DNA from: Minisyncoccota bacterium
GTDB taxonomy: Bacteria; Patescibacteriota; Minisyncoccia; Minisyncoccales; JAQTVQ01
NCBI GenBank assembly: GCA_041652155.1
Contig: JBAZHV010000002.1
Coordinates: forward strand, 1-56,426
Length of the DNA stretch: 56,426 nt
Direction of reading: 5' to 3'
Part shown: positions 17,195 to 56,426 of the stretch, piece after piece
Position numbering within the stretch: the stretch's first letter is position 1
Layout of the letters: each line of letters opens with the position of its first letter
Position numbers and translations under genes: made by a program
The notes under the pieces: generated by a model
What the model was told of the DNA's origin: nothing
Seen by the model: the letters and a program-made list of their open reading frames with translations, nothing else
The model's database searches: none

Positions 17195-17255
17195 AATTGG
17201 TCTATTGTAACAAAGTTTCTTTTTCTTGTTAATAATCCTTTTCTCGCGCGGCGCG

Positions 17256-18749
17256 CTAGTAAGCTTGAGCGAATATCCATTGATATTTGGCCGGTTTCCC
17301 GCAATAAACGCACTTGCCCTCTTTTTCCCGGCCCTCCTTCGCTGAAGCTTCGGCGGGCGATGCGGGCAAACCCTCCTGACCGGCGGGTAAACACCTTGTT
17401 GTGGCTTTGGTTTCTTCTTTTATTTTGGCTTCGCATTCGGGATCTTCACACCAGTAAGCTTTGATGAAACCTTTGGGCCCGTTCATTATTTCCTTGAATT
17501 CATTATAGTCTTTGGCTTCGCGCGTGTTTTGCGCAAGGTAATCGCGGCTCTTTTGCAAAAGATCTTTTTGGATGTCGGCAAGCGCTTTTCCCGCTTCCGC
17601 TTTCAGGTCTTTAAGATCTACTGATATTTTTTGTCCGTCCATTCTGCGGGTCAGAGTTGCCTTTCCTTGTTCCAATTCTTTAGGTCCGAGTTCGATCCTC
17701 AACGGCACTCCTTTCAATTCCCATTCGTTGAATTTCCAGCCCACGGAATATCCTTCTCTCAAATCCAATTCCACGCGAAGATCGGACAGATCATTATCTT
17801 TTATTTCCTGGGCTCTCTTGATCACTTCTACGTCCCCTTCTTTGCCTCGGATGATCGGAATGATCACGACTTGTATCGGAGCCAATGCCGGAGGCAGAAC
17901 CAAACCGGAATCGTCGCCGTGGACCATTATCAAAGAAGCCAGGCTGCGGGTGGAAAGCCCCCAGGAAGTTTGCCAAGGCGTTGCTTTTTTGCCTTCCTGA
18001 TCCAAAAATTCTATGTTGAAAGACTTGGCGAAATTCTGCCCCAGATTGTGGGAAGTGGCGCTTTGCAAAGCGATCCCCGAAGGCATCAATGTTTCAAAAG
18101 TATAAGTGGCGTCCGCTCCCGGAAATTTCTCGCTTTCCGATTTGCGCCCGTCAATGCCGTCAATGGCAAAATAATTGCGGTAGATGTCTTTGTACTGCTC
18201 TATCGCCCAATCCACCTGTTCTTGCGCTTCTTGATTGGTGGCGTGGACCGTATGGCCCTCCTGCCACAAAAATTCGATATTGCGGATAAAAAATCTGGGC
18301 CTCTTTTCCCATCGCACCACGTTGCACCATTGGTTCACTTTATAGGGAAGGTCTCTCCAAGAGCTTATCCATTGGGCGAACATCGAATACATTATCGTCT
18401 CCGAGGTCGGACGGACCACGAGTTTTTCTTCCAGCTCTTTGCCTCCGCCGATCGTGACCACGGCCAATTCCGGCGCGAACCCCTTAACGTGTTCTTTTTC
18501 TTTTTGCAAAAAACTTTCCGGAATGAACATCGGGAAATAAGCATTCTTGACGCCGTTGGCTTTTATCTTCGCGTCCAAAAATTTCTGGACCAATTCCCAG
18601 ATGGCATAACTGTAAGGTTTGAAGATCATACAGCCCTTCACCGGAGAATGATCCGCCAGGCCCGATCTTACGACCACGTCTTGATACCATCCTGAAAAAT
18701 CTTCAGATCTTTTAACGAGATTTTTTTTATCGAATATTTTTTCTGCCAT
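17256..18749 (-). CDS. proS: Prolyl-tRNA synthetase, archaeal/eukaryote-like type with a Cys-rich C-terminus
   Basis: FSGWYQDVVVRSGLADHSPVKGCMIFKPYSYAIWE. C-terminal CEDPECE...CVYCGK. The likely start is MAEKIF at 18749, although the ORF track starts at 18800. Confidence 0.9.
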   Translation of the reverse strand: MAEKIFDKKNLVKRSEDFSGWYQDVVVRSGLADHSPVKGCMIFKPYSYAIWELVQKFLDAKIKANGVKNAYFPMFIPESFLQKEKEHVKGFAPELAVVTIGGGKELEEKLVVRPTSETIMYSMFAQWISSWRDLPYKVNQWCNVVRWEKRPRFFIRNIEFLWQEGHTVHATNQEAQEQVDWAIEQYKDIYRNYFAIDGIDGRKSESEKFPGADATYTFETLMPSGIALQSATSHNLGQNFAKSFNIEFLDQEGKKATPWQTSWGLSTRSLASLIMVHGDDSGLVLPPALAPIQVVIIPIIRGKEGDVEVIKRAQEIKDNDLSDLRVELDLREGYSVGWKFNEWELKGVPLRIELGPKELEQGKATLTRRMDGQKISVDLKDLKAEAGKALADIQKDLLQKSRDYLAQNTREAKDYNEFKEIMNGPKGFIKAYWCEDPECEAKIKEETKATTRCLPAGQEGLPASPAEASAKEGREKEGKCVYCGKPAKYQWIFAQAY

Positions 18750-18807
18750 ATCTTGCTCTGCCAAAATTCCCGTTGCTGCGTCCTCGGAGCAACAGCGCAA
18801 ATATTTA

Positions 18808-19938
18808 TCACTTGAAAATTATATCTTTAAAAACCCACAGATCTTTTGCCGTGATCAAAACGGCCAAGCCGATCAATATCAAAGCCCCAACCTGTTCTAT
18901 CCTGGCCTGAAGCTGCGAAGAAAATCTTTTTTTGTCGATCGCCTGCAAGCCGATGAAAACCAGTTTTCCTCCGTCGAAAGCGGGGATCGGCAGGATATTC
19001 GTCGTGGCCAAAGCCAGGGAAACCACCGCCAGCAAATTGACCAGTTCAAAAAATCCGCGGTCGATCGTAACTTTGGTGGCCGCAAAAATTCCCACCGGAC
19101 CGATGAAAGACGCCCCCAAAAGGTCCGTCGTTTTTTCCTTGAAAGAAGTTTCTATTATTTTTCCGATCGTGACAAAAGAAAAATGGGTGACGTTGACCGA
19201 ATGTAAAAATCCGGCGGCCAATTTGTCCGCGGGGTTCTTATAGCTTAACAAAGCAATGTCCGTCATCTGTATTCCTAAAATATGTTTTTCCGTTCCGGCT
19301 GGAAAATCAACGGTCAGCGTACGCTCCTTCTCCGTCTTCGTGTCTTTTAATATTAGATTTACCTGCTGGTCGGTCGAGCCGGCCATATAGCTTACGAGGT
19401 CTTGCGAACCGGAAAAAATTTTTCCGTTTGCCGAAAGAACGGCTTCTCTAGCCTGCATTCCGGCCTTTTCAGCCAAAGACCCTTCCTGCACGCGCAAAAC
19501 CATGGGATAATTCTGCTGGACGCCCAAAGGAAATTTATAATCGGAAAAAAATAATGGCTGCCAAAATTGAAAACCGGAAACGATGGCCAAACAATAGAAA
19601 AGAATAACGGTCAAAGCCAGGTTCATTAGAATGCCTCCTCCTATGATCCAAAGTTTTACCGAGGATTTTTGGGCCTCAAGGCTGCGGGGATTTCCGGCCG
19701 CGTCGGCATCGTTCGTATCTTCGCCCAATATTCTGTTGTAGCCGCCGAAAGGTATCAAACCCAGGCCGTATTCGGTTTCTCCTATTTTCTTTTTATAGAT
19801 GATCGGCGGAAACCCCAAAACGAATTCTTCCACTTTGACCCCGTTGCGTTTGGCCGCCCAAAAATGGCCGAGCTCGTGAACGAAAACGGCCCCGCCGATA
19901 ATGACGATAAACGCCAAAATTGTAAGTAATAATGCCAT
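18808..19938 (-). CDS. rseP: Site-2 (RIP) zinc metalloprotease RseP
   Basis: HELGHFWAAK HExxH motif, a central PDZ-like region and a polytopic membrane topology. Confidence 0.85.
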   Translation of the reverse strand: MALLLTILAFIVIIGGAVFVHELGHFWAAKRNGVKVEEFVLGFPPIIYKKKIGETEYGLGLIPFGGYNRILGEDTNDADAAGNPRSLEAQKSSVKLWIIGGGILMNLALTVILFYCLAIVSGFQFWQPLFFSDYKFPLGVQQNYPMVLRVQEGSLAEKAGMQAREAVLSANGKIFSGSQDLVSYMAGSTDQQVNLILKDTKTEKERTLTVDFPAGTEKHILGIQMTDIALLSYKNPADKLAAGFLHSVNVTHFSFVTIGKIIETSFKEKTTDLLGASFIGPVGIFAATKVTIDRGFFELVNLLAVVSLALATTNILPIPAFDGGKLVFIGLQAIDKKRFSSQLQARIEQVGALILIGLAVLITAKDLWVFKDIIFK

Positions 19939-19984
19939 TTGATTCTTCGTTGAGCCTCGGCCGCTTCCAAGCGGGAAAAGCTCC

Positions 19985-20545
19985 TTACTCCTCGAGCTCT
20001 TTTTGTTTATTTTTGATCATCGTCTCGATCTTCTTGTTGTATTCGTCAACGATCTTTTGCAAATCATCTTTTCCTCTGAATTTATCGTCTTCTCTCACTA
20101 TTCCTTCTTTCTCCGCTTTCTGCAAATTGGACCAAGCCTCATCGCGGAAATGCCTTATGGTCTTTTTTGCTTCTTCTTCCGCTTGCGAAAGGGTCTTGAT
20201 CAGCGTCTTGCGAAGTTCGGTTGATAATGACGGCAAATTGACCTTAACGCCGTCCTGATCGACGGAACAGCCGATCCCCGATCCGTGTTGCGATATCGCT
20301 CTTTGGATAGGATCCATATAAGAAGAGTCCCAGCATTGGATCAATAACTGTTGCGAATTGAGGACCGAGATGGCGCCTAACTGTTTGACCGGCATTTTCT
20401 CGCCGAAAATTTCCACTTGAATGTTCTCCACCAAAGCCGGACTGGCTCTGCCGGTGCGGATCGTAGACAATTTATTCTGGAAATAAGCAATCGCCTTATC
20501 CAGTTCGGGTTTAATGGAGTCAATAATTTGTTTGTAGGACGTCAT
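19985..20545 (-). CDS. frr: Ribosome recycling factor
   Basis: LSTIRTGRASPALVENIQVE motif and 186 aa length. Confidence 0.9.
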   Translation of the reverse strand: MTSYKQIIDSIKPELDKAIAYFQNKLSTIRTGRASPALVENIQVEIFGEKMPVKQLGAISVLNSQQLLIQCWDSSYMDPIQRAISQHGSGIGCSVDQDGVKVNLPSLSTELRKTLIKTLSQAEEEAKKTIRHFRDEAWSNLQKAEKEGIVREDDKFRGKDDLQKIVDEYNKKIETMIKNKQKELEE

Positions 20546-20631
20546 AATTATTTTTGCTTTTTATTTTCTTACCAGCCCGGTCTTTGGGCCGCTCGAACGG
20601 CCTGCGGATCGAGATGATAATTATTTTTAAA

Positions 20632-21537
20632 TTAAATATTTAAATTTAACATTAAATTTTCCAAAGCCAGTCTTTGATTGGCATTGGTCGTTTTTATCAA
20701 ACAGACGGTATCTTCCAATGCTTTTATTCCCCGCACCAATCCCGGCCTGCCTTCGGGATGCTGAAGCAACAAGCGCCTCAACTCTCTTTCCCAAAGATCC
20801 AGTATCCCGATCACGGTCTCGGGCGAATCGGTTATTTTTTTGACGTATCCGAACCTTTCCGGGATGCCGGACTTGAGCATCAAACCTATATCTTTTATCT
20901 CTTGCTCTTGGATCTTGACCTTCTCGGGATCATTTAAAAAATCTATCGCCTGTCCGGGCCTTCCCAAAGACAGATCGGCGATCTCTCCGGCTTTTAACCT
21001 GTCCGCTCCCAAGCTTATCAAATGATCTTCTATTTCTTTTTGGCTGACCAAAGGAAATTTCAACACCTGCACCCTTGAAAACACCGTTTTCAAAAGCATC
21101 TGCGGGCTGTGGGTCACCAAAATAAGCAGAGTGTCGCCCTTAGGCTCTTCCAAAGTTTTTAAAAGGCTGTTTTGCGCGTCAGACTCGGCCAAATGGATAT
21201 CGTCGATTATGCCCACTTTTATTTTAGCACTATATGGTTTCAATGACAGCCGCCACCCAAAATCGCGGATCTGGGCTATTTTTATGGCTCCTTCCTGCGC
21301 AAGGACCAAAGATAGATCGGGATGCGATCTGCTGGCGACATCCGAGCAGGCACGGCATTTTTGGCAAGGCCGATCGCCCGGCTCTCCTTCCTGGCAGAAA
21401 ATAAACTTGGCTGTCTCAATGGCCAAAGTTTTCTTTCCTATTTTTTCGGGTCCGGCAAACAAAAGAGCGTGAGGCAATTTTCCAGCCTCTGCCATACCTT
21501 TTAAGATCTGCCATTGTTTTTTCAGACCGGCTATCAT
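20632..21537 (-). CDS. holB: DNA polymerase III delta-prime subunit
   Basis: HALLFAGPEKIGKKTLA Walker-like motif and CQKCRACSDV zinc module. Confidence 0.8.
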   Translation of the reverse strand: MIAGLKKQWQILKGMAEAGKLPHALLFAGPEKIGKKTLAIETAKFIFCQEGEPGDRPCQKCRACSDVASRSHPDLSLVLAQEGAIKIAQIRDFGWRLSLKPYSAKIKVGIIDDIHLAESDAQNSLLKTLEEPKGDTLLILVTHSPQMLLKTVFSRVQVLKFPLVSQKEIEDHLISLGADRLKAGEIADLSLGRPGQAIDFLNDPEKVKIQEQEIKDIGLMLKSGIPERFGYVKKITDSPETVIGILDLWERELRRLLLQHPEGRPGLVRGIKALEDTVCLIKTTNANQRLALENLMLNLNI

Positions 21538-44885: not shown

Positions 44886-47381
44886 TCACGCGCCGTGGCA
44901 CTTTTTGTATTTTATGGGATTGCCCGTCTGCTGGTCTATCTTGCCGCACGGACAAGGATCATTGCGTCCGGGTTTTGATCCTGAATTCTGATTGGAGATT
45001 TTAGCATCAACCTCCCCTTTTGGCAACCCTGGATTTTGAGGCTTGGCGGCCAGTGATGCCTGTCCCGAAGGAGGCCTCGGACTGCTTTTCATAATGGAAT
45101 TGGCTGCCGTTGTTTCCATCGTGCCCAAAAGTTCCTGGAACATTCTATGCCCCTCGCTCTTGTATTCGACCAACGGATCTCTTTGGCCGTAAGCTCTCAA
45201 ACGGACAGAGTCTCTTAGGCTTTCCATATTTTCCAAATGCTCGACCCAGAGCATATCGAACACTCTCAACAAAATATTTTTTTCGACTTGGCGCATCGTC
45301 TCGGCTCCGAACTCGCTTTCTTTTTTAGTATGATCATCGGCCGAAAATCCGGCCTTGCCGAATATCTCCAAAACATAATTTTTGAGATCTTCGGGTTCCT
45401 TTGTTATTATATCTTTTCTCTTCTGGTAATAGACTTCTCTGTGCTTGTTCAGAACATCGTCATAGTCGAGAAGATGTTTGCGGGAATCGAAGTTTATACC
45501 TTCGACTTTGGATTGCGCCGACTCGATGCTTCTACTGATGATCCCGTTCTCGAGAGGCAGATCGTCCGGAAGGTTAAACCTCTCCATCAGCGCTTTCATA
45601 TTGTCTCCTCCGAAAATGCGCATCAAATCGTCGTCCAAAGAAACGAAGAATTGGGTCGATCCCGGATCGCCCTGCCTGCCTGCGCGTCCGCGAAGCTGGT
45701 TATCGATCCTGCGCGCCTCGTGGCGTTCGGTGCCGATAATGCGCAAGCCTCCAAGTTCGCGCACTTTTTCGGCCTCTTCGGGGTCGGACGGATTTCCGCC
45801 GAGCAAAATATCGACTCCTCTGCCGGCCATATTGGTCGCGATGGTGATCGCGCCTAATTTTCCGGCTTGGGCGATGATCTGGCCTTCGCGCTCATGGTTC
45901 TTCGCGTTCAAAACTTCGAAAGGAACTCCCGTCTTTCTTTCCAATATTTTGGCCAACAATTCATTTTTTTGTATCGAGGTGGTGCCGACCAGAACCGGCT
46001 GGCCTCTTTTATTGCACTGTTCGATCTCTTCGGCCACGGCTTTGAACTTGGCCAATTCCGTTTTATAAATACGGTCCGGCAGGTCCTGCCTTACAAGTTT
46101 TTTGTTGGTCGGGATGACCGTGCTTTCCAGGCCGTAGACCTTGTCGAATTCTTCCGCAGATGTGGCCGCGGTTCCGGTCATTCCTCCGATCTTTTTATAC
46201 ATCCTGAAATAATTTTGAAAAGTGACGGTAGCCATCGTGATCGATTCGGGCTGGACCGCCACGCCTTCTTTGGCTTCGATGGCCTGGTGCAGGCCGCCTG
46301 ACCAGCGGCGTCCGGGCATCAAGCGTCCGGTGAACTGGTCGACAATAACGACCTCGCCGTCGCGGACGACATAATCGCGGTCTCTTTCAAAAAGGGTCTG
46401 GGCTCTTAAAGCCTGCTCCAAATAATGGAGATATTTTATTCCTTTGTCTTCATATATATTTTCCAAACCCAAGATCTTTTCGATCTTGGCGACCCCTTCT
46501 TCTTTCAGCGTCACCGCTTTAAGTTTTTCGTCTATATCGTAATCGCTTTTTGTGATCTGCGGGATGAGCTTGGCGAAATCTTTATACCAATTGGAGCTCT
46601 CCATATCGGGCGCGGAAATGATCAAAGGGGTTCTGGCTTCATCGATCAAAATGGAATCAACCTCATCGATGATCGCAAAATTCAAATCGCGCTGGACCTT
46701 GTCTTTCAGGTCGAAGACCATATTATCTTTGAGATAATCGAAACCGAATTCGTTGTTCGTTCCGTAAGTTATGTCCGCCTGATAAGCCTGCTGGCGGGTG
46801 CAGGGCCTTAGATAATCTTCTACTATATAGAAGGCTCCCAAATTGTCGCGCATCTTATCTTTTTCTTCCCCGTCTTTTTTGTAGGTCGGATCATAAATAA
46901 AAGACTGCTCGTGATTTATGCACGACACCGACAGGCCCAAAGCATCGTAGACCTGGCCCATCCAAACGCAATCGCGGCGGGAAAGGTAATCATTAACGGT
47001 AACCAGTTGGCAGCCTTTTTGCTCCAAAGCGTTCAGATAAAGCGGCAATGTGGCGGTCAAAGTTTTTCCCTCCCCTGTTTTCATTTCGGCGATGCGCCCC
47101 TGATGCAAAGCAATGCCTCCGATGAGCTGAACATCGAAGTGGCGCTGTTTGAGATTTCTTCTCGAAGCCTCTCTGACGGCGGCAAAAGCCCGGGGCAGAA
47201 TATCGTCCAGGGTTTTTCCGTTTTTTAATTCTTCCTTGAATTGTTCGGTCTTCAATTTCAGCTGTTCGTCCGAAAGACCTTCAAAATCTTTTGCAAGACT
47301 GTTGATCTGATCGATCGCCGGCTGTACTTTGTCAACGTATCTTTTGTTGGCGTCGCCTAAAATTTTGCTGAAAATGGACAT
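44886..47381 (-). CDS. secA: Preprotein translocase ATPase SecA
   Basis: MKTGEGKTLTATLP Walker A motif and C-terminal zinc motif CPCGK...KKCHG. Confidence 0.95.
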   Translation of the reverse strand: MSIFSKILGDANKRYVDKVQPAIDQINSLAKDFEGLSDEQLKLKTEQFKEELKNGKTLDDILPRAFAAVREASRRNLKQRHFDVQLIGGIALHQGRIAEMKTGEGKTLTATLPLYLNALEQKGCQLVTVNDYLSRRDCVWMGQVYDALGLSVSCINHEQSFIYDPTYKKDGEEKDKMRDNLGAFYIVEDYLRPCTRQQAYQADITYGTNNEFGFDYLKDNMVFDLKDKVQRDLNFAIIDEVDSILIDEARTPLIISAPDMESSNWYKDFAKLIPQITKSDYDIDEKLKAVTLKEEGVAKIEKILGLENIYEDKGIKYLHYLEQALRAQTLFERDRDYVVRDGEVVIVDQFTGRLMPGRRWSGGLHQAIEAKEGVAVQPESITMATVTFQNYFRMYKKIGGMTGTAATSAEEFDKVYGLESTVIPTNKKLVRQDLPDRIYKTELAKFKAVAEEIEQCNKRGQPVLVGTTSIQKNELLAKILERKTGVPFEVLNAKNHEREGQIIAQAGKLGAITIATNMAGRGVDILLGGNPSDPEEAEKVRELGGLRIIGTERHEARRIDNQLRGRAGRQGDPGSTQFFVSLDDDLMRIFGGDNMKALMERFNLPDDLPLENGIISRSIESAQSKVEGINFDSRKHLLDYDDVLNKHREVYYQKRKDIITKEPEDLKNYVLEIFGKAGFSADDHTKKESEFGAETMRQVEKNILLRVFDMLWVEHLENMESLRDSVRLRAYGQRDPLVEYKSEGHRMFQELLGTMETTAANSIMKSSPRPPSGQASLAAKPQNPGLPKGEVDAKISNQNSGSKPGRNDPCPCGKIDQQTGNPIKYKKCHGA

Positions 47382-47747
47382 AATAAAAAATTCCTCAAAA
47401 TTTAATAAATCTACGAGATAAAAGCTTTTTTAAAGGTTGCGAAACATCTTTCCGGCAAAATTGGGCCGAACCTCTGTTTGCCCCGCCGGTTTGACACGAC
47501 CTGTTGTATTATTGTATAGCTTTTAACTTAATCATTGTATAGCTTTTACGAAAAAAATCAAAGAGAGGCTTGTTCTTTCCGCTCTATCCTCTCTCCCTCC
47601 GCCAAAAAATAAAAAATCGCCCCGAAAAGACGATTTTTAATTTTATAAAATTACTGATTTTACCCGCGACCTTTCAAGGTCAAAGATCGCCATTCCGCTA
47701 AAACGCTCGGACAATATTGCCAAAAAAATCATGGCCAGCCCGGCTTC

Positions 47748-47778
47748 ATCTTCTGCAGAGATCAGATCTCTGCAGAAG
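47748..47778. repeat. Palindromic element atcttctgcagagatc-a-gatctctgcagaag (14-bp arms), copy 1
   Basis: Read directly. The partner is at 49918-49945. Confidence 0.8.
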
Positions 47779-47822
47779 CAAATTGTCTTTTATGCGCGCC
47801 TCAAAAAGCAACACTTCGCCTT

Positions 47823-49838
47823 TCACATACCGGAAAGAATTTGGGAAAAAATTGTGATACCATCCCTTCCGTCTTTGCCGTTATATCCAGAGTATCCGCC
47901 AATGCCGCCGCTGCCGGGTCTGCCGCCAATTCCGCCAATTCCGCCAGAATTTGAGATCGTACCGGAATTAGTTGCCGTACCCTTGGAAATGATAAATATA
48001 TCGGCTCCATCTTCACCATTGCCGCCATTACCTCCGTTGCCATTATAAACAAGGATAGTACCTCCTGCATAAGAAGCCGAGCCGCCATTTCCTCCATTTC
48101 CTCCGTTGCCGCTCTGGGCATTTATTGTTCCGGTAAAATTAACGGTGCCTCCGACATACATAACAAGCGGTATCGCGGCGCCGGTACCATTCCCGCCGTT
48201 CCCTCCGTTGCCACCAGAAGAATTTTTAAAACTGCTGGCTGCCCCTCCATTTCCGCCGTTCCCCCCGCCGAGGCGTCCGGCTCCTCCGTTCCCTCCGTTG
48301 CCACCAATACCGCCGCTGCCATAGTTGCCGACAGTGGCGTCCCCTCCGCTGCCACCCGCGCCGCCGATACCGGTGAACCCGTCTCCTCCATTACCGCCGT
48401 CCCCTCCGCTGCCGCCATTTGTGGATGACTGGCAGGTATCGCCGTTTCCTCCATTACCGCCGTTTGCGTAACCCCATCCTCCATTACCGCCAGGACCAGT
48501 TTCGCAACCATTTCCAGGATCAGAACCTTTTCCTCCTTTTCCTCCGCTGCCGCCGCTGCCGCCGTTAACTCCTGAAGAACCGCCAGCTCCGCCGCCACCC
48601 TTACCGCCGCCCGCGCCGCCATTGCCGCCGTTGCCAATATTATAACCTCCACCACCTCCGCCGCCGCCGGCAACACCGCCAGAAGTGCCAGCTGCTCCAT
48701 TACCGCCGTTGCCGCCGTTAAAACCGCTGGCGGAACTGCCGGGAAGGCCTGTCGCATTATATGAATTTCCTCCACCCCCGCCGCCGCCAGTCACAGAATT
48801 ACCGCCGCTGCCCGCGCCGCCGCCGGAGGCACCGCCTGATCCATTGCCAGAGGAAATAGATGTTCCACCATTGCCACCGGGCCAGTATCCTTGCCATCCG
48901 CCAAACCCGCCGGCGCCGCCGTTATTAGGAGAAAAAATTGTTACCGGGTTACCGCTCGTGACAGTATCGCCGCGGCTGGTTGTAAAAGAAAAAGGCTTTG
49001 ATCCGCTGGTGACGAGACCTCTTAGTTCGATCGTGCCGGCGATCGTCGCATTGCCTGAAACGTTGATCAAGGCAGGGCCGGTTCCGGTAAAGGCCAATGT
49101 CGCGCCCGATGAAATATTAAAAGAAGAAAAATTATAGACATGGCCTAGCGTGAGAGTTGTGACGCCGGACGTTACGCTGAAAGCTCCGTCGGCCCCTGTT
49201 CCTCCGAGAGGCCCGCTGCTGCTCCCCGCTCCGCTTGCTATCGTCGCCCAAGTGCTCGAAGCCACGCAGGAAGTGCCGATGCAAAGCTGGCCTCCGTTGC
49301 TGATCACCACTTTGCCGTCCGACTGGATGGTCAGAATGTGGCTGCCGTAGGAATTGGCAAAACGATCGGCATAGGTGTATGCGTCCAAATAAAGGTTACT
49401 TCCGTCGGCCAAAAATCCGAAGGAGGATTGGCCGTCCTCGTTATCCACCAGCCGAAAGGAAGGGAGAGCGCTTTCAACGACAGAGTCTTGATAGCCGTAG
49501 CTGCTCTGGAGAATATGGAATTTGGAATATACGGATGGAGCGCCTGTTCCAACCCCGACAGATCCCGCCAAGAGCGTTTGCCCGGCAGGGTTGACGTAAT
49601 ATGCCGTGTTGTCTGCGTCGTAGAATATGGAAGCGGTTAAATTTCCTTGGACAGCCAAAGATCCTGCTTTGGTTTGGGCAATGCCTCCTGTATTCAGCGG
49701 GGCGGCCACGGTTACGGGCATGGTGCCGGTGGGTTCTGTCCAGGCCAGGGCGATGTAGCCGGCCGAGAGGGACAGGACCAGGACCGAGGCGAGGACGGCC
49801 ATGATCCGGGGATTATTGATGCGAAAAAAATTGCGCAT
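47823..49838 (-). CDS. Secreted or anchored Gly/Asn/Ser-rich repeat protein (GGNGGNG-type tracts)
   Basis: Signal/anchor sequence [26 protein letters not shown] structured N-terminal region contains [15 protein letters not shown]. The C-terminal half is dominated by GGxGGxG repeats. Confidence 0.75.
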
Positions 49839-49917
49839 AGGATCAAATTTAATTAAACGGGATCTGATTATTTATTTCCCATATTTTAGCATAAAAAAAA
49901 TTTCAATAATACTAGCT

Positions 49918-49945
49918 ATCTTCTGCAGAGATTAGATCTCTGCGG
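49918..49945. repeat. Palindromic element atcttctgcagagat-tag-atctctgcgg, copy 2
   Basis: The first 15 nt are identical to 47748-47762. Confidence 0.8.
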
Positions 49946-49951
49946 TTATTT

Positions 49952-50917
49952 TTATTTGCTGGAAAAAGAATTCTGGCCTGCTTCCGCCAGCCTTTGCTGA
50001 TAATCTCCTTTTGTTATCGATCCTTTGGCCAGAAGTTTGTCCAAACCTGCGATATAATTTTGGCGGACGGCCGAGGCGGTAAGGGCGGCGCCGTAGATGC
50101 GGAATGTGTCCATGCTTCCTTGAAAAGCCGGGCCTCCGCTATATGATCCTATATAAAGATTCCTGGCTGGATCGGACAGAACCAGATTGGATAAAGATTT
50201 TGTCGCGCCGAGCTGGGTTCCGTTGATATATAGTTTTGCTTGAGACGAACCTACTGTCAGAACAAGATGATACCAAACGCCGTTGCTGAAAGTGTAAGTG
50301 TATCCTCCAAAATTATTCGGGCCGCCGGCAAACCCTCCGGCGGAATTTCCAAAACAAGTATAATTAAAATTATTCCCGTTATTCCTGTTGTCGTAAGTGA
50401 ACCACCAGCCTGCGTTGGGAGCGACGGAATCGGGATACCCTTTCGAAGCGATGGCCCAAAGCCTGCCCGTCGAGCCGGAATAATCAATGCCGGTAAATTT
50501 GACCCAAGCTTCCACGGTTATCGCGCTGGCAAGGTCGAGACTGCCGCTTGCGCCGCCGTTGCCGCAGTTAAGATAGTCTGACGTGCTGAATTGCAAGCAT
50601 CCTCCGTCAACGCAATCCGCGCCTGATATCCAAACCGGGCTGCCGGAAAAATTACAATTATTTTTCGGGCTGGCCCAGCCGTCCGAGACAACCGTCCCCG
50701 ATCCATCATCGAACCTCCATTCGGAAACAGAGGAAGCGAGCAAAGAGCTTCTCATGGAATTGGAAAAAACTTTAACTTTGGCCAAGCGCGCGCTGTCTGT
50801 GGCTCCGCTCAAATTAACCACGGCCATGCCGGCCAAAATACCCACTATGGCAACGACGATCAGAAGTTCGATCAGGGTAAAACCGAATTTAAATTGTCGG
50901 CTATTTTTTAACGCCAT
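49952..50917 (-). CDS. Type IV pilin-like LamG-domain protein (array member 8, most downstream)
   Basis: KFG|FTLIELLIVVAIVGILAG, CVDGGCLQF, FRIYGAAL and the C-terminal helix NYIAGLDKLLAKG. Confidence 0.85.
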   Translation of the reverse strand: MALKNSRQFKFGFTLIELLIVVAIVGILAGMAVVNLSGATDSARLAKVKVFSNSMRSSLLASSVSEWRFDDGSGTVVSDGWASPKNNCNFSGSPVWISGADCVDGGCLQFSTSDYLNCGNGGASGSLDLASAITVEAWVKFTGIDYSGSTGRLWAIASKGYPDSVAPNAGWWFTYDNRNNGNNFNYTCFGNSAGGFAGGPNNFGGYTYTFSNGVWYHLVLTVGSSQAKLYINGTQLGATKSLSNLVLSDPARNLYIGSYSGGPAFQGSMDTFRIYGAALTASAVRQNYIAGLDKLLAKGSITKGDYQQRLAEAGQNSFSSK

Positions 50918-51797
50918 ATTCTAAATTTATTTCCGATAATTTTTGCCAATATTCTTCCTGGGTAATTTGGCTGCCGGCCAAAAATTTTTCCAGTCCCGCG
51001 AGATATTTTTCCCGGATTTCAAAGGCACTTAGCGCCTGGGTATAAACCTGAACGTCGTCTATGAGGCCTCCAAAAAATTGATTGCTCTGATGCTGTCCGA
51101 CCCTTAAAGGCAGGTCAAAATTGGTCAAAAGGCCGACGCTGGTTCCGATAAAATAAGATTTGCCGTCAAGCCATATCTTCACCGCTCCGGATCCGTCTTT
51201 AGTTAATCCTACTAAATACCATTTCCCGGCGGAAAGATTGACTGTGGCAGTACCTGAAGGAACGCTGGACCTGTCGTTATTCCAAACGTCCGTGTAAAGG
51301 TTCCCGTTGACGGTCCAAAGGCCGGCAACGGCTCCGCTGGCGCTTTTTCTGTGCACGATGATCGCGCGATAACCGTCAAGGAGGGCGGGCTTTATCCAAG
51401 CCAGATAAGTGAGCTGGCCGGGGAACTGCAAATTGTCCGCGTTGGTAAACTCGGCATATCCGCTGGTTCCGTCAAGGCTCAAAGAATAATGGCCGGCGTC
51501 ATTGTAGATCGTGCTGGTGGAATAAAACGCTCCGGCATAAATGACGCCATTATTGGCATTACCGGAAGAGTCACTGGCGTTCTGGCTGTCGAATGTCCAT
51601 TCTCCGGCCAAAGCGGCAGCCATAAAATGCTTGGCCCCAGAGGCGAAACTCTGGCTCTTCGCTACCCTCGCGCTCTCGGTCGCCCCGGACAAATTCACAA
51701 CAACCATCCCGGCCAAAATACCCACGATAGCAATGACGATCAAAAGTTCGATCAGGGTAAAGCCAAATTTAAATTGTCTGTTATTTATTTTCGGCAT
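50901..51797 (-). CDS. Type IV pilin-like LamG-domain protein (array member 7)
   Basis: KFG|FTLIELLIVIAIVGILAG and DDVQVYTQALSAFEIREKYLAGLEKFLAG. Confidence 0.85.
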   Translation of the reverse strand: MPKINNRQFKFGFTLIELLIVIAIVGILAGMVVVNLSGATESARVAKSQSFASGAKHFMAAALAGEWTFDSQNASDSSGNANNGVIYAGAFYSTSTIYNDAGHYSLSLDGTSGYAEFTNADNLQFPGQLTYLAWIKPALLDGYRAIIVHRKSASGAVAGLWTVNGNLYTDVWNNDRSSVPSGTATVNLSAGKWYLVGLTKDGSGAVKIWLDGKSYFIGTSVGLLTNFDLPLRVGQHQSNQFFGGLIDDVQVYTQALSAFEIREKYLAGLEKFLAGSQITQEEYWQKLSEINLEYGVKK

Positions 51798-52701
51798 AGG
51801 TTAAATTCAGGTTCGATAATCTTTGCTCGTATTCCCCCTCCGCCATAATGCCCTTGGCCGACAACCGATCCAGTCCCGATAAATATTCTTCCCTGATCCG
51901 GGAAATTGTCAGCTGCTTGTTATAAACCCTGACCCCGTCGGCCAGTCTGGGATAACTTCCTCCTCCCATCCATCCGTTCCCTGTCGGCGCGATCGGAGCT
52001 TGAGTGTTTGAAGTCGCATAATAGCTTTCCTCTTTTCCGTCTATATATATCTTGGCGTTCAGGATATTATTTATCTCCCCTCCCGCAACGACAAAAACTA
52101 TGTGATGCCACTTGCCGTCCCGCAGATCGGTCCTGCCGTATCTGTAACTTGAGCCGTTCAAATAAATAAGCGGTTTGTATTGGGTCCAATAGCATGGGGA
52201 AAAGGCGGGAAGAGAACCGCTGCCCGCGCCGAACGAGATCAAATATCTGGCGGCCGATCCGGACGCGGAAGAAGGTATATTAACCCAAGCTTCGACGGAA
52301 TAATCTCCGGACAGAGATATCTGGTTGCCCATCGACATATAATCATCCGCCCCATCGAATTGCAGACACCCTTCCGATACGCAAGACGAACCGGTCCTCC
52401 ATCCGTCGGTAAGATCAAAATTAAAATTGTTAAGAATTCCGTTGTTGGTTCCGACCGTATCGGCAACGGCAGTGCCCGACCCCTCGTCAAAATTCCACTC
52501 CGAAACCCGGTTCATCAACAAAGAGCTTCTCACCGAGCTGGAAAAAACTTTAGACTTGGCGATCTTCGCGCTATCGGTCGCCCCCGACAAATTCACCACA
52601 ACCATCCCGGCAAGGATGCCGATGATGGCGATGACCACCAGGAGCTCGATGAGCGTGAAGCCTTTTTGGGTTTTGGATTGTTGGTTATTCGTTGGCTGCA
52701 T
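51781..52701 (-). CDS. Type IV pilin-like LamG-domain protein (array member 6)
   Basis: QKG|FTLIELLVVIAIIGILAG, CVSEGCLQFDGADDY and VRVYNKQL. Confidence 0.85.
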   Translation of the reverse strand: MQPTNNQQSKTQKGFTLIELLVVIAIIGILAGMVVVNLSGATDSAKIAKSKVFSSSVRSSLLMNRVSEWNFDEGSGTAVADTVGTNNGILNNFNFDLTDGWRTGSSCVSEGCLQFDGADDYMSMGNQISLSGDYSVEAWVNIPSSASGSAARYLISFGAGSGSLPAFSPCYWTQYKPLIYLNGSSYRYGRTDLRDGKWHHIVFVVAGGEINNILNAKIYIDGKEESYYATSNTQAPIAPTGNGWMGGGSYPRLADGVRVYNKQLTISRIREEYLSGLDRLSAKGIMAEGEYEQRLSNLNLTYAENK

Positions 52702-53587
52702 AAGTTGAATTCAGATCGGCTAATCTTTTTTGATAATCCTCTTTTGTAATCCGGCCTCCGGCCAAAAGCTTGTCCATGCCGGCGATATAATTTTCGCGGA
52801 TGGCGGAAGCAGGCAGGGCGGAATTGTAAATGCGGACTCCATCAATTGTACCGTTAAAAAAATAACCTCCATCAGTGTATCTGCCTATAAATAGATTTTT
52901 ATTTGTGGCGGAAAGTTTATTCGTATTAGCTATTTCTTTATCGAAATTGCCATCGATAAATATTTTCGCTTTATCATCTGTATCGCTAAAAGTTGCAACA
53001 ATGTGGTGCCAAGATTTTAAACTAATTATCGAATTAGATATGCATTCGGGTGCCCAAGCGCCAATTCTCCACATTATTCTGCTAAAAGGGCTAGTCGAAG
53101 CACCTGTGATAACGAATTGGCTTGGGCCATCATGATCGATTATTCTCATATATGCCGTTAAATCCGATGATAGATAAAGCCACATTTCAACCGAAACTGC
53201 ATTTATAATATTCAAGCTGGGGTCGTTGCCGCAATCTATATAATCGTTGATCCCATCAAGGCTTAAGCAGCTGCCGGAGATGCAATCAACTTTATTGGTT
53301 TTCCAAGTGGGGGAGTTAAACAACGTTCCATTGTTATTCATTCCCGAAATATCATTTGCTGTTGTGCCCGTTCCTTCATCAAAATTCCAATCGCCGACCA
53401 AGCTTGTCGCCATGCTGTGCTGAATGCTCGAAGAAAAATTTTGCCCCTTAGCAATCCTCGCTTTATCGGTCGCCCCCGACATATTTATCACGACCATCCC
53501 GGCCAAAATACCGATGATGGCGATGACAACCAGGAGCTCGATGAGCGTGAATCCTTTTTTAATTTTAAGATCATTTACCGATCGCAT
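52685..53587 (-). CDS. Type IV pilin-like LamG-domain protein (array member 5)
   Basis: KKG|FTLIELLVVIAIIGILAG, CISGSCLSLDGINDY and VRIYNSALPASAIRENYIAGMDKLLAG. Confidence 0.85.
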   Translation of the reverse strand: MRSVNDLKIKKGFTLIELLVVIAIIGILAGMVVINMSGATDKARIAKGQNFSSSIQHSMATSLVGDWNFDEGTGTTANDISGMNNNGTLFNSPTWKTNKVDCISGSCLSLDGINDYIDCGNDPSLNIINAVSVEMWLYLSSDLTAYMRIIDHDGPSQFVITGASTSPFSRIMWRIGAWAPECISNSIISLKSWHHIVATFSDTDDKAKIFIDGNFDKEIANTNKLSATNKNLFIGRYTDGGYFFNGTIDGVRIYNSALPASAIRENYIAGMDKLLAGGRITKEDYQKRLADLNSTYAANE

Positions 53588-54473
53588 AATTTGAATTCAA
53601 TTCCATTGATCTTTTTTGGTATTCTTCTTTGTTTATCCGGCCTTCGCCCCAAAATTTTTCCAGGCCCGCGAGATAATCATTGCGAACCGACGAAGCGGTA
53701 AAAGCTTGGCTGTATATTTTGACTTCGTCAACCAGGCCGTTCATAAATTCTCCCGAACCGTTCCGGCCGATTTCGACATTATTTGCGTTGGAAATCAGCA
53801 GCCCCGAAGCGGTAGCGGCGGAGCCTATGCTTTTCCCATCCAGATAAGCTTTCAACAAGGCGCCGTCATAAACCAAGGCAACATGATGCCAAACATTATT
53901 GGTAAAAACGGTCGAGACCACAGCCGTATGGCCGGCCGCATCATTAATGCGAAAGCCCATATTCGGCCCCTCGCTATCCCTCGTGGCTCTCATCTCAAAA
54001 ACCGATGAGGTGTGGTATCCTTTAGAGATCAAAGTTCTGTAAGCCGCAGAAGGACGGGACTTGAACCAAGCTTCCACGGTCAAAGCGCTATAACCGTTGG
54101 CCAGAGTGTTGTTGACCGATACATAACTGCTTCCGTTGAAATCCGCTGAATAATTTCCCGCTATTCCGCTCCCAAAAGGCGCCTCCGTGGAATAAGCCAA
54201 TGCCCCGACAACGGTTCCGTTGTTGTTATTCCCTGAAGAGTCGTTGGCGTTTTGTCCGTCAAAATTCCAGTTGGCCGGCATATTCAAAGCCATACTGCGC
54301 TGAATGCTGGAGGCAAAGGTTATCCCTTTGGCAATTCTCGCCCTGTCCGCCGCCCCCGACATATTCACGACCGCCATCCCCGCCAGAATGCCGATGATCG
54401 CGACGACAACCAAGAGCTCGATGAGCGTGAAAGCTTTTTGCATTTTGGATTGGCGGCTATTTTCTGGCTGCAT
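53571..54473 (-). CDS. Type IV pilin-like LamG-domain protein (array member 4). It has Ala rather than Gly at position -1 of the cleavage site.
   Basis: QKA|FTLIELLVVVAIIGILAG and VKIYSQAFTASSVRNDYLAGLEKFWGEG. Confidence 0.85.
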   Translation of the reverse strand: MQPENSRQSKMQKAFTLIELLVVVAIIGILAGMAVVNMSGAADRARIAKGITFASSIQRSMALNMPANWNFDGQNANDSSGNNNNGTVVGALAYSTEAPFGSGIAGNYSADFNGSSYVSVNNTLANGYSALTVEAWFKSRPSAAYRTLISKGYHTSSVFEMRATRDSEGPNMGFRINDAAGHTAVVSTVFTNNVWHHVALVYDGALLKAYLDGKSIGSAATASGLLISNANNVEIGRNGSGEFMNGLVDEVKIYSQAFTASSVRNDYLAGLEKFWGEGRINKEEYQKRSMELNSNYAIGK

Positions 54474-55377
54474 AAGTTGAATTTAGATCGGCCAATCTTT
54501 GCCGGTAATCTTGATCCGTTATCTGATTATTGGCTAAAAGTTTATCCAGGCCGGCGAGATAATTTTCGCGAATGGCGGAAGCGGGCAGAGCGGCGTTGTA
54601 GATGCGAACCTCGTCAATAAAAGCATTGAGCGTAGCACCATTCCATATATCTCTCCCTATTTTGGCTGTCCCGCTAGGAGATGCGGTCACGCTAGAAATC
54701 GTTCCCGTATAACTAACGGGTTGCAACACTCCATTTATATATATTTTTGACCTATTCGCGTTTCCCGACTGCGTTCCGTCGAACACGCAAGTAATAAGCT
54801 TCCAATCATTTCCTGATGGTATATCCATTCTAGCATAATTAATTGCCCCATTGTTTGCGAATAACAGCCCTACGGAACTGTGCCAGGCAATTTCTATCCA
54901 TACGCTTGAAGAGTCCGACTGTTTAAAAAATAAAGCGCCGAATCCGCTGGTTCTTTTTACCCACCCTGAAATAGTCAATTGAGAAACTCCATTGACGGAA
55001 GCCATATCGCCGATATCCACATAGTCGTTCGCTCCGTCAAATTGCAAGCATCCTTCGGACACGCAGGACGAACCGGTCCTCCAGCCGTCGGTTGAATCAA
55101 AATTAAAATTGATGAGGGATCCGTTATTGGCTCCTACGGTATCGGCAACGGCAGAGCCCGCCACTTCGTCGAATCTCCATTCCGAAACTCGATTCATCAG
55201 CAAAGCGCTGTGGAGAGAAGAAGAAAATGCTTTGGATTTTGCCACCCTCGCGCTCTCCGTCGCCCCCGACATGTTCACCGCAACCATCCCGGCCAGAATA
55301 CCGATGATGGCGATGACGATAAGAAGCTCGATGAGGGTGAAGCCGGTTTTGATATTTTGATTATTCATGCGCCGCAT
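54457..55377 (-). CDS. Type IV pilin-like LamG-domain protein (array member 3)
   Basis: KTG|FTLIELLIVIAIIGILAG, CVSEGCLQFDGANDY and VRIYNAALPASAIRENYLAGLDKLLANN. Confidence 0.85.
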   Translation of the reverse strand: MRRMNNQNIKTGFTLIELLIVIAIIGILAGMVAVNMSGATESARVAKSKAFSSSLHSALLMNRVSEWRFDEVAGSAVADTVGANNGSLINFNFDSTDGWRTGSSCVSEGCLQFDGANDYVDIGDMASVNGVSQLTISGWVKRTSGFGALFFKQSDSSSVWIEIAWHSSVGLLFANNGAINYARMDIPSGNDWKLITCVFDGTQSGNANRSKIYINGVLQPVSYTGTISSVTASPSGTAKIGRDIWNGATLNAFIDEVRIYNAALPASAIRENYLAGLDKLLANNQITDQDYRQRLADLNSTYAARK

Positions 55378-56290
55378 AGTTTAAATTTAAGTCCGACAGC
55401 CTCTGTTCATAATTTTGCAAAGCAATTTCCCGGGAGGCCAAAAGTCTGTCCAATCCTGCGAGATAATTTTCGCGGACGGCGGAAGCGGGCAGGGCGGCGT
55501 TATGGATGCGGACATCGTCTAATACTCCTTTAAAATAACGCTCCAAGCCGGAGCTTCCAAACTGCAAGTTATAAAATCCATTGCCGATGGTCAGGCTGTT
55601 GGAAGAACTCGAACCGACGGCAACGCCATTTTTATACCATTGAAAAATATTTCCGGACCTCGAAAGAGTCAAATAGTTCCACTGGTCTTGAGCCATATTC
55701 GCTTCCACAGTATATGCAATGCCCCAAGGGCTGCCCGCCACATCATCGGCCACGAATCCGATATCTCCTCCGTGAGAAATATTCGTCGTTATATCCCATC
55801 CCAAATTATAACCGCTTCCTTTGTGAGTGCCCATTACGGCCCGATAATTTCCCGTGTTGACGATATTCGGTTTGAGCCAAAAAGAGATGGTGAAATCATT
55901 TTTGCCTTCGACTGGCGCATCGATATTTCCCATGTCGATATAATCATTCACGCCGTCGAAACTCATCGAATACTGTCCGGCTGTGCCGCCGCTCAAAGGG
56001 ACGGTCGTGGTCGCGACGGCTCCGCTGATGGTGCCGTTGTTGTCATTGCCGGAAGAATCGCTGGCATTCTGTCCGTCGAAATTCCAGTCGCCGACCAAAT
56101 TTGTCGCCATACTGCGCTGGATGCTGGCGGCAAAGGTTATCCCTTTGGCAATACGGGCTTTGTCCGTCGCCCCCGACATGTTCACTGTTATCATCCCGGC
56201 CAAAATGCCGATGATGGCGATGACCACCAAAAGCTCGATGAGGGTAAAAGCTTTTTGCGTTTTGGATTGTCGGCTATTCTTCGATTGCAT
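55361..56290 (-). CDS. Type IV pilin-like LamG-domain protein (array member 2). It has Ala at position -1.
   Basis: QKA|FTLIELLVVIAIIGILAG and VRIHNAALPASAVRENYLAGLDRLLAS. Confidence 0.85.
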   Translation of the reverse strand: MQSKNSRQSKTQKAFTLIELLVVIAIIGILAGMITVNMSGATDKARIAKGITFAASIQRSMATNLVGDWNFDGQNASDSSGNDNNGTISGAVATTTVPLSGGTAGQYSMSFDGVNDYIDMGNIDAPVEGKNDFTISFWLKPNIVNTGNYRAVMGTHKGSGYNLGWDITTNISHGGDIGFVADDVAGSPWGIAYTVEANMAQDQWNYLTLSRSGNIFQWYKNGVAVGSSSSNSLTIGNGFYNLQFGSSGLERYFKGVLDDVRIHNAALPASAVRENYLAGLDRLLASREIALQNYEQRLSDLNLNYAAHE

Positions 56291-56426
56291 AAGTTAGATT
56301 CAGATCGGCTAGTCTTTGTTGATAATCTTCTTTTGTGATCTGGCCTCCGGCCAAAAGTTTTTCCAGGCCGGCGAGATAATTTTCGCGGATAGCGGAAGCG
56401 GGCAGGGCGGAATTGTAAATGCGAAC
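56274..56426 (-). CDS. Type IV pilin-like LamG-domain protein (array member 1). Only the C-terminal 50 codons are present because the gene is cut by the window edge.
   Basis: Hand translation gives VRIYNSALPASAIRENYLAGLEKLLAGGQITKEDYQQRLADLNLTYAIEE-stop. The stop is at 56274-56276 and the gene has the same 17-nt overlap with the next gene. Confidence 0.8.
   Translation of the reverse strand, partial: VRIYNSALPASAIRENYLAGLEKLLAGGQITKEDYQQRLADLNLTYAIEE

Follow-up and report, generated by a model that had tools for sequence, protein, structure and literature searches.

Overlapping pilin-LamG genes in a Minisyncoccota bacterium form a tandem array with a recurrent 17-nucleotide junction

Pilins that combine an N_methyl segment with a LamG-type module (PF13385) represent one of the commonest modular pilin architectures, which is widespread and has examples in the Candidate Phyla Radiation (CPR) (PMC8179133). 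In Streptococcus sanguinis, the minor pilin PilC carries a lectin module, binds glycans and belongs to the tip complex (PMC9934059), and in TM7x the jelly-roll, lectin-like minor pilin PilX1 has been tied to glycan-dependent host binding (PMC11623550). Homologues of pilB, pilT, pilM and pilC are present in most Patescibacteria phyla (PMC11623550), and metagenome-assembled genomes (MAGs) of Paceibacteria hold clusters of genes with pilin signals that adjoin pilBCDMT (PMC9763046). Here we examine a 56,426-nucleotide (nt) stretch of DNA from a Minisyncoccota bacterium (contig JBAZHV010000002.1 of assembly GCA_041652155.1, hereafter the window), in which a tandem array of pilin-LamG genes, each overlapping the next by 17 nt, occupies positions 49952-56426. 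The protein architecture is not new, and the family already has a generic name at NCBI; the new element is the organisation of a known kind of adhesin as an array of overlapping cassettes.

The closest described systems resemble the array in their parts and differ from it in their arrangement. PilC likewise fuses a short pilin part, with its class III signal, to a concanavalin A (ConA)-like/LamG lectin domain, with a proposed role in pilus-mediated glycan adhesion. It is, however, a single gene within a pil locus, has an extra immunoglobulin-like module and lacks a C-terminal helical hairpin, whereas the array comprises 12 paralogues in overlapping tandem, away from pil genes. PilC was also not among the profile or Foldseek matches in the Protein Data Bank (PDB) to two array proteins, g3 and g4 (the window genes are called g1 to g8). 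PilX1 of Nanosynbacter lyticus, a cultivated episymbiont, is similar in coming from the CPR, in its beta-jelly-roll, lectin-like C-terminal domain and in its proposed role as a host-glycan adhesin, a likeness drawn by description only; it is a single-copy gene in a pilus locus, reportedly without a predicted PilD signal, whereas the window proteins have canonical signals and occur in large arrays. The Paceibacteria UBA5633 clusters also consist of adjacent genes with pilin signals, in a host-attached organism, with a proposed role in attachment. They differ in accompanying pilBCDMT, and the consulted portion of their description, on which this comparison relies, mentions no LamG heads, fixed overlap or cassette reassortment (PMC9763046). 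In the CPR-pilin literature searched, we found no long tandem array whose genes overlap out of frame by a fixed 17 nt, no C-terminal hairpin, no pan-repertoire of individually conserved cores and no reassortment at junction blocks.

For the uncultivated majority of the CPR, host recognition and attachment are an open question, and it is only recently that lectin-headed pilins were implicated in the few Saccharibacteria in cultivation. The locus described here offers a testable candidate for host recognition in Paceibacterota, with many pilins whose heads are conserved singly and differ strongly from one another. Should these heads bind glycans of the host, metagenomes alone could allow host range to be predicted from the content of an array.

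The explanation that we favour, and that we consider reasonably probable as a whole, combines an operon, display on a pilus, translational coupling and exchange of cassettes. The window would hold the distal two-thirds of a 12-gene, Paceibacterota-like modular type IV pilin operon that has no intergenic space. Each product would comprise a basic leader of 12-14 amino acids (aa), a G/A-FTLIE cleavage and methylation site, the helix alpha-1, a LamG/ConA-like jelly-roll and a C-terminal hairpin. A prepilin peptidase would process these proteins, pilus machinery encoded elsewhere would display them as tip, minor or interspersed subunits, and the displayed heads would bind glycans on a host cell or surface. 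A junction block of ~340 nt, which takes in the coding sequence of the hairpin, the overlap and the sequence for the leader and alpha-1, would have two roles. It would place an ATG 14 nt before the preceding stop in an A/T-rich, unstructured stretch where terminating ribosomes re-initiate, and it would serve as a homology tract where recombination or gene conversion adds, removes and reorders whole lectin cassettes. Of these parts, the existence of an operon of modular pilin-LamG paralogues is very probable.

The array lies on the minus strand and consists, in the window, of seven complete open reading frames (ORFs) of 298-321 aa and one gene cut by the window edge. The eight co-directional genes and seven junctions reported in an initial annotation of the window, made from its letters alone, match the sequence exactly. 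At each junction, the overlap measured from the downstream ATG to the last base of the upstream stop is precisely 17 nt. The overlapped ATG is embedded in upstream TAT-GCx codons (Tyr-Ala/Gly), and the upstream stop (TAA or TAG) is embedded in codons 5-6 of the downstream leader, read there as AAT-AAC or AAT-AGC (Asn-Asn or Asn-Ser). A longer view comes from the source contig L001 (JGI 3300035208 Ga0376279_0000178), whose positions 9865..20930 are identical to window positions 56426..45361 and which contains the complete array of 12 co-directional genes; g1 to g8 are its array genes 5-12, and array gene 5 has a full length of 297 aa (L001 9124-10017). The term "invariant", which the initial annotation had applied to the overlap, holds for the seven window junctions and not for the full array, where 17 nt occurs at 9 of 11 junctions. 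One of the other two overlaps by 14 nt (tail YAAK before the stop), and the last is disrupted by a frameshifted leader. This leader belongs to array gene 3 (L001 7402-8242, beyond the window), in which, at a run of five T, FTLIEL falls one base out of the frame set by the ATG at 7402; the residue at -1 would be Asn even with the frame restored, and the gene is probably defective. The remaining 11 of the 12 copies are complete, with their own ATG, leader, intact ORF and stop.

Other assemblies bear on the structure of the array. Over 12,098 nt, L001 and L002, the latter from a second assembly made from another sample, are 99.99% identical; the 303-aa and 290-aa gene calls and the 8-nt overlap in L002-L004 therefore reflect alternative start-codon calls and not strain variation. 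L165, from another sample, matches L001 at 100% up to L001 7766 and then diverges within array gene 3; the divergent stretch is 121 nt long, has a 17-nt inverted repeat and could be an insertion element or an assembly chimera. Upstream, the array in L001 is flanked by MurB, a 31-aa Lys-rich ORF and a hairpin followed by a run of seven T. Downstream are a hairpin, a 671-aa Gly-rich protein and SecA. The downstream hairpin possibly marks the end of the transcription unit; it is a weak candidate for a terminator because the minus strand has no T-run there. The ninth paralogue that the initial annotation had counted is a solitary copy (ORF 25556-26494). It probably starts at Met32, giving ~281 aa, and has no overlapping neighbour and no second C-terminal helix.

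The predicted proteins share one architecture. N_methyl (PF07963) and Laminin_G_3 (PF13385) are both above the Pfam gathering thresholds in all seven complete copies and in the solitary copy. Across these eight, Laminin_G_3 reaches E-values of 5.5e-15 to 2.6e-25 (56-90 bits, the cut-off being 27.6). In the seven complete copies, TIGR02532, the prepilin domain of NCBIfam, also scores above its cut-off. Leaders are 12 or 14 aa long with a net charge of +2 to +4; that of g2 is MQSKNSRQSKTQKA, with FTLIE after the cleavage site. The residue at -1 is Gly in g3, g5, g6, g7 and g8 and Ala in g2 and g4. In the paralogue alignment, the mature N-terminus FTLIELL(V/I)V(I/V)AI(I/V)GILAG, with Phe at +1 and Glu at +5, is invariant or almost so. 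AlphaFold2 (AF2) models were built for g4 and g3, which represent two subtypes, each from an alignment of 102 sequences. The g4 model has a predicted local distance difference test score (pLDDT) of 85.1 and a predicted template modelling score (pTM) of 0.78, with alpha-1 at residues 17-63 and C-terminal helices at 260-276 and 282-299; the g3 model (pLDDT 85.9, pTM 0.79) has alpha-1 at 15-62, a jelly-roll at 63-260 and helices at 266-282 and 288-305. In both, alpha-1 spans ~48 residues and the jelly-roll ~190, and the two C-terminal helices form a hairpin. The initial annotation had proposed this order of basic leader, (G/A)-FTLIELL signal with Glu at +5, hydrophobic helix and LamG core, which the Pfam matches in every copy and the models (pLDDT 85-86) bear out. 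It had also proposed one conserved C-terminal helix; the conserved segment is there, and it is predicted to form two helices.

The cores were further described there as lectin-like, and the structure predictions agree, matching LamG domains that bind carbohydrate as well as the lectin-like Hc-N domain of clostridial neurotoxins. In Foldseek searches of the PDB, the best match is domain 4 of AbnA (5hon), with E-values of 3.5e-13 for g4 and 6.4e-11 for g3, and the top matches also include clostridial neurotoxin Hc-N and the lectin domain of a trans-sialidase, all with a probability of 1.00. A profile search of PDB sequences gave 4qvs, an S-layer-domain protein, at 2.8e-22 for g4, with a second value of 5.4e-20. 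Sequence identity to the matched LamG domains is 13-20%, and 5hon, 4qvs and Hc-N, while alike in fold or profile, belong to enzymes, S-layer proteins or toxins and not to pilins. The cores are therefore lectin-like by fold and may bind sugars. The nearest named homologues are annotated as "LamG-like jellyroll fold domain-containing protein" in Ca. Paceibacterota and Minisyncoccales MAGs, which places the relatives in the CPR, and the best non-self identity among them is only 47%. The TafC family (NF052521), a Tat-dependent haloarchaeal fimbrial subunit (PMC11821415), was considered and set aside: the window proteins score 17-49 bits against a cut-off of 410, over the LamG part only, because the LamG fold is shared.

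The window array contains two interleaved subtypes, g3, g5, g6 and g8 on the one hand and g2, g4 and g7 on the other. One subtype has a conserved CxxxxC pair that opens the jelly-roll (e.g. SCVSEGCLQFDG) and 3-5 Cys in all, and the other is free of Cys and bears the motif GITFAASIQRSM / GQNASDSSGN. Searching a library of 1.84 billion proteins with the profile returned 718,932 matches, mostly giant multi-LamG proteins, and was uninformative for the pilin-LamG family. In these giants, of 1.3-7.7 thousand aa, the PF13385-type module is repeated 6-36 times in tandem within one protein, and they look like a single-protein counterpart of the gene-by-gene array.

Whether these proteins are displayed on a pilus can be approached from their sequences and from the genes around them. 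We lean, by a little, towards pilus-displayed glycan adhesins, by analogy with the described systems. The proteins have all the defining sequence features of pilins that assemble, including Glu at +5 and a full hydrophobic alpha-1, and PilC and PilX1, the precedents with a lectin module that have been characterised, are both associated with pili (PMC9934059, PMC11623550). The head, a LamG jelly-roll with a helical hairpin, is not the classical globular alpha/beta pilin head with a D-region, and three of the seven mature proteins have no Cys. A C-terminal disulfide-bonded D-region is typical of classical T4a pilins and does not define the pilin superfamily, and the non-classical head is the deviation seen in modular pilins.

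Several observations nevertheless weigh against display on a pilus. PilB, PilC, PilD and PilM-O were not found in domain searches of the 56-kb window, as the initial annotation had also stated, nor was a small canonical pilin, and no pilB, pilC, pilD, pilM or small canonical pilin was found within 10 kb, or up to the nearer contig end, of five related arrays, the neighbourhoods of which all differ. Across the family, the residue at -1 is Ala at 96 of 134 junctions, and Ala at this position is less canonical than Gly in prepilin signals. A motif scan of the window yielded no further class III signal. In another reading, the signal serves only for PilD processing and anchoring or release, the proteins being surface or secreted lectins or components of a pseudopilus or competence-type system, which would resemble the situation in Verrucomicrobia and Planctomycetes, where N-methyl-motif proteins are greatly expanded. 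One related array follows ComEC, none lies beside pilus machinery, the best sub-threshold profile scores of the alpha-1 region are to GspG/GspH and to Verru_Chthon cassette protein D, the N-terminal motif is common to many matches from the Planctomycetes-Verrucomicrobia-Chlamydiae group, and the mature subunit, at 285-310 aa with a head of 22 kDa, would be bulky for the body of a filament. Set against the complete pilin features and the pilus-associated precedents, such a role seems unlikely to us. It is less likely still that the paralogues are major subunits that co-polymerise into a thick, heteropolymeric, lectin-coated filament. Large major pilins do exist, such as PilA of M. xanthus (PMC11046646), coupled translation would yield similar amounts of all copies, and the lack of a small canonical pilin would fit; this last point, however, covers only 56 kb of the genome, while known modular pilins are minor subunits (PMC8179133, PMC9934059) and the major pilins of TM7x are small (PMC11623550).

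We compared the junctions with those of related arrays. These were obtained by two routes, protein homology and a scan of metagenomes with a hand-made DNA pattern of the junction; since the pattern biases its seeds toward 17 nt, one seed per locus was removed as a correction. At loci found by homology, 23 of 27 junctions overlap by 17 nt. The pattern scan returned 81 stretches, many with matches spaced 880-950 nt apart and with up to 12 genes per contig, and 17 nt was present at 118 of 136 junctions, or at 72 of 90 (80%) after seed removal. Taken together, the related arrays from metagenomes provide more than 150 junctions, of which ~80-85% are 17 nt long and the others 14, 8, 11, 20, 26 or 4 nt. 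L005, an array of at least eight genes downstream of ComEC, has 17 nt at 5 of 7 junctions, and L007, with at least 13 genes, at 9 of 10. Overlaps of this length, uncounted, are also present in L170, a six-gene array on another contig of the source sample (L170 6385-11780, JGI 3300035208 Ga0376279_0000045, a 125-kb contig), which lies between thioredoxin genes and a glycosyltransferase with RF-1 and may come from the same genome as the window array or from a relative. Because it recurs in so large a share of related junctions, the 17-nt geometry is a trait of the family. A scan of genome contigs by full-length alignment found mostly unrelated pilins of Verrucomicrobia, Planctomycetes and others, with L009-L012, at 27-29% identity, the only full-length relatives. 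A distant, small N_methyl/LamG array in Minisyncoccales (L171 9202-12736, GCA_050949025.1) lies between GyrB and SecE-NusG and has 11-nt overlaps.

Identical geometry among paralogues is expected when whole units duplicate, and the overlap could accordingly be a frozen scar of duplication, inherited from an ancestral unit and kept by constraints on both segments while the genes initiate independently. Descent from one unit would need no selection initially to give the same geometry throughout. The distant 11-nt arrays fit this reading, the variants of 14, 8, 11, 20, 26 and 4 nt are flanked by genes that look intact, and variation at the overlap is spread over both frames, neither of which dominates. 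Initiation without Shine-Dalgarno (SD) sites throughout the genome also suits it, as an A/T-rich context alone may suffice for each start.

The 12 array paralogues are 33-52% identical pairwise, and their alignment was divided into an N-block (columns 1-60), a core (~61-300) and a C-block (301-354). At identical residues in the core, the same codon is used at a frequency of 0.25-0.54, against 0.29-0.51 expected from codon usage. The corresponding values are 0.49-0.70 against 0.31-0.50 in the N-block and 0.45-0.73 against 0.33-0.50 in the C-block. Core synonymous sites are saturated, and the two flanking blocks show a clear excess of nucleotide conservation. RNA structure was rejected as the reason for the extra synonymous conservation, the mean z over 10 junctions being +0.15, with no stable or conserved structure. 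Homogenisation within a genome does not account for the excess either, since the blocks are about as similar between genomes as within one. The persistence of exactly 17 nt despite saturated core synonymous sites, together with its recurrence in other genomes, places the geometry beyond chance, and it goes against a mere scar that the length is kept at ~80-85% of junctions although in-frame 3-nt indels in the tail are tolerated. A second argument comes from the ends of the arrays. The tail Y[AGVT]xxx-stop is present in 144 of 159 internal genes and in only 3 of 16 terminal genes, 13 of which, g8 included, do not have it. The motif thus accompanies a downstream overlapped gene and is apparently not required by the protein itself, and its loss in terminal genes suggests that the YAxx(E/K) tail is kept for the downstream start. 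With evidence on both sides, we regard the scar as possible, though rather unlikely.

Long overlaps also occur elsewhere in the window. By ORF coordinates, three unrelated gene pairs overlap by 20 nt: MurJ/LepA (9644-9663), a methylase and an ICEA-like gene (4154-4173), and a Gp49-like and a helix-turn-helix (HTH) gene (11785-11804). The MurJ/LepA overlap is probably real because the Pfam match of LepA begins at residue 4. This genome may favour long overlaps in general, and the hint that they are put to general use is a further point against the scar.

Translational coupling of the array genes would give the fixed overlap a function, and we rate it as evenly poised. SD-like motifs are almost absent upstream of the 47 window genes, whose start contexts are A/T-rich (e.g. 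44886-47381 and 31005-31394), and no array gene is preceded by an SD site. At the junctions, the GC content over positions -10 to -1 ahead of the ATG is 14%. For five of the seven complete genes in the window, the ATG in the overlap is the one candidate start (ATG, GTG or TTG) that precedes the cleavage site. A step back of 17 nt is plausible for coupling, and by our estimate an ATG 14 nt upstream of the stop would still lie within the footprint of the terminating ribosome. Co-transcription of the array is close to certain on sequence grounds, because there is no intergenic space and promoter- or terminator-like sites within the array do not exceed those in shuffled controls; internal promoters and terminators were rejected accordingly. 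In L001, an extended -10-like element recognised by eye only, TGATAAAAT (5593-5611), stands before the first array gene, with neither a -35 element nor an SD site; because it ends 7 nt ahead of the ATG, it suggests that the first transcript is leaderless or almost so. The locus is also a natural test case for re-initiation across a fixed 17-nt backward step without use of SD sites.

The evolution of the cores was followed in genes that share them. The core-sharing set comprises 36 gene pairs from different contigs with cores of 80-99% nucleotide identity, pairs that are not independent of one another. Nonsynonymous (dN) and synonymous (dS) divergence in this set was 0.041 and 0.45 in the core (dN/dS 0.09), 0.082 and 0.77 in the N-block (dN/dS 0.11), and 0.142 and 0.50 in the C-block (dN/dS 0.28), and in 29 of these 36 pairs dS was higher in the N-block than in the core. 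The pooled core ratio led us to reject diversifying selection; each lectin core is under strong purifying selection and is not hypervariable. The heads look like an anciently diverged, individually conserved set, that is, a fixed set of different binding specificities. The initial annotation had envisaged divergent cores on a constant scaffold. The cores do differ strongly between paralogues, and they are not fast-evolving; the scaffold is not constant, as the flanks are the part exchanged between paralogues and are more diverged than the core in genes that share one.

Conserved flanks around variable cores resemble the cassette systems of other pilins. In Neisseria pilE/pilS and the pilin islands of Pseudomonas, a conserved 5' pilin sequence flanks variable regions and acts as a substrate for recombination, giving mosaic repertoires that differ between strains. 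The window array differs in that its copies are complete and apparently expressed, the cores are conserved, and the variation lies in the presence and order of cassettes. A pilE/pilS-type system of antigenic or phase variation, with one expressed copy and silent donors, or an array in decay, would accommodate the one copy in 12 whose leader is frameshifted at the T5 run, a copy within which a related contig also breaks. We nevertheless consider it highly improbable and rejected a silent-cassette system, since the other copies are complete and every core tested is under purifying selection; moreover, inverted repeats are lacking, neither a recombinase nor a reverse transcriptase lies close to the array, and nothing points to a single privileged expression site. 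A shufflon or a diversity-generating retroelement was likewise rejected: all genes point in the same direction, only chance-level inverted repeats of 16-20 nt are present, no reverse transcriptase was found in the window, and its sole recombinase (5349-6935) belongs to a mobile island at a distance of 43 kb.

The history of the junction blocks differs from that of the cores to which they are attached, which indicates recombination or gene conversion among paralogues. Clustering at 80% or higher amino-acid identity grouped 203 cores into 123 types, 72 of them singletons, and types common to several arrays occur in differing combinations and orders. The order in L101, for example, is 5-41-44-15-16 and that in L142 is 5-44-16, and L133 mixes core types otherwise found in L005/L007, L001, L005 and L170. 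L130 carries versions of the g6 and g7 cores, at nucleotide identities of 88% and 90% respectively, separated by two extra cassettes. L130 1-1031 aligns with L001 13610-14634 (88%) and L130 2638-3887 with L001 14484-15727 (90%), so that both flanks share the 150 nt at L001 14484-14634. Whole genes are thereby the unit of gain and loss between arrays, in line with the duplication of whole-gene units originally suggested. Among inter-locus segments of at least 90% identity, 41 of 50 ends fall within -190 to +225 nt of the codon for Phe +1. In the colinear arrays L170 and L107, which are 1% apart, the junction blocks account for 47% of the length and for 39 of the 55 differences, and the differences form tight clusters; no exact donor within the locus was found for these clusters at the level of a whole-cluster exact match.

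That cassettes reassort at the junction block is, on this evidence, fairly probable. Some points count the other way. BLAST extension biases the ends of segments into conserved blocks, the mosaics come from contigs assembled from short metagenomic reads, and the arrays hold exact repeats of 30-107 nt, because of which some mosaics could be assembly chimeras; independent assemblies agree, however, for L001/L002 and for L005/L006. Nucleotide identity of the blocks is also about the same within and between genomes (70.5 against 69.8% and 57.7 against 55.7%). Conversion therefore does not visibly homogenise an array, and recent concerted evolution within a genome is not supported. A stronger proposal would make the junction block a maintained, dual-purpose module, at once a recombination "splice site" through which Paceibacterota populations reassort more than 100 individually conserved lectin cassettes between arrays and, in a genome free of SD sites, a fixed re-initiation site that ties expression to position, with cassette order setting adhesin stoichiometry on the pilus. 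We put it forward as speculative and, taken whole, doubtful. Were it true, the arrays would be a bacterial counterpart, for host recognition by episymbionts, of the host-range cassettes of phage tail fibres.

Table 1. Positions in the window of the array genes, their overlaps and associated features.
Feature	Position	Strand	Evidence or remarks
g1, array gene 5 of 12	56274-56426	minus	last 50 codons and stop; translation ends in NYLAGLEKLLAGGQITKEDYQQRLADLNLTYAIEE before the stop
g2, pilin-LamG, array gene 6	55361-56290	minus	309 aa; N_methyl 9.5e-09, Laminin_G_3 3.6e-19
g3, pilin-LamG, array gene 7	54457-55377	minus	306 aa; Pfam, AF2, Foldseek
g4, pilin-LamG, array gene 8	53571-54473	minus	300 aa; Pfam, AF2, Foldseek, profile search
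g5, pilin-LamG, array gene 9	52685-53587	minus	300 aa; ORF and Pfam
g6, pilin-LamG, array gene 10	51781-52701	minus	306 aa; ORF and Pfam
g7, pilin-LamG, array gene 11	50901-51797	minus	298 aa; ORF and Pfam
g8, pilin-LamG, final array gene	49952-50917	minus	321 aa; ORF and Pfam; tail without YAxx(E/K) motif
17-nt out-of-frame overlap, g1 stop/g2 start	56274-56290	minus	atgcaatcgaagaatag
17-nt overlap, g2/g3	55361-55377	minus	sequence
17-nt overlap, g3/g4	54457-54473	minus	sequence
17-nt overlap, g4/g5	53571-53587	minus	sequence
17-nt overlap, g5/g6	52685-52701	minus	sequence
17-nt overlap, g6/g7	51781-51797	minus	sequence
17-nt overlap, g7/g8	50901-50917	minus	sequence
g6/g7 junction block, join for the two extra cassettes of L130	51657-51807	minus	alignment of L130 with L001
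10-bp hairpin	49923-49945	minus	7 nt past g8 stop; reported on the opposite strand by the scan
Solitary ninth paralogue	25556-26401 (ORF 25556-26494)	minus	N_methyl and Laminin_G_3, alignment, motif scan

Outside the array, the window is an ordinary segment of CPR type, with genes for SecA, SecD, SecF, PGK, AlaRS, ProRS, the ribosomal proteins S13, S11, S4 and S9, and RpoA as well as MurA, MurJ, LepA, RRF, GatA, two MreB and a CarS-like protein. The only other NTPase of the general type of the pilus ATPases is a VirD4/TraG-like coupling ATPase with a treble-clef zinc finger (37911-39824, minus strand), which probably belongs to a type IV secretion or conjugation system of the CPR monoderm type. 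Directly downstream of the array, the 671-aa protein (47823-49838, minus strand) has an N-terminal membrane segment, long Gly-rich repeats of the GGNGGxG type and no Pfam match; its local GC content is 56%, against ~46% around it, and it was not seen beside related arrays.

At the other end of the window, positions ~1-7000 form a mobile island of low GC content (32-39%) with two DNA methyltransferases, an AIPR abortive-infection protein and an ICEA-like protein. The island also carries a large serine recombinase (5349-6935, plus strand) and restriction-modification genes, and on this side the window reaches ~5.1 kb past the end of the 69-kb JGI contig. The gene pair at 11406-12174 (plus strand) encodes the overlapping Gp49-like (HigB-type) toxin and HTH antitoxin and is followed by a DUF6941 gene. 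In this bacterium of small genome, the two MreB paralogues are encoded at 16091-17194 and 21617-22621, and the CarS-like protein, a member of the CDP-archaeol synthase family, at 13179-13748, all on the minus strand.

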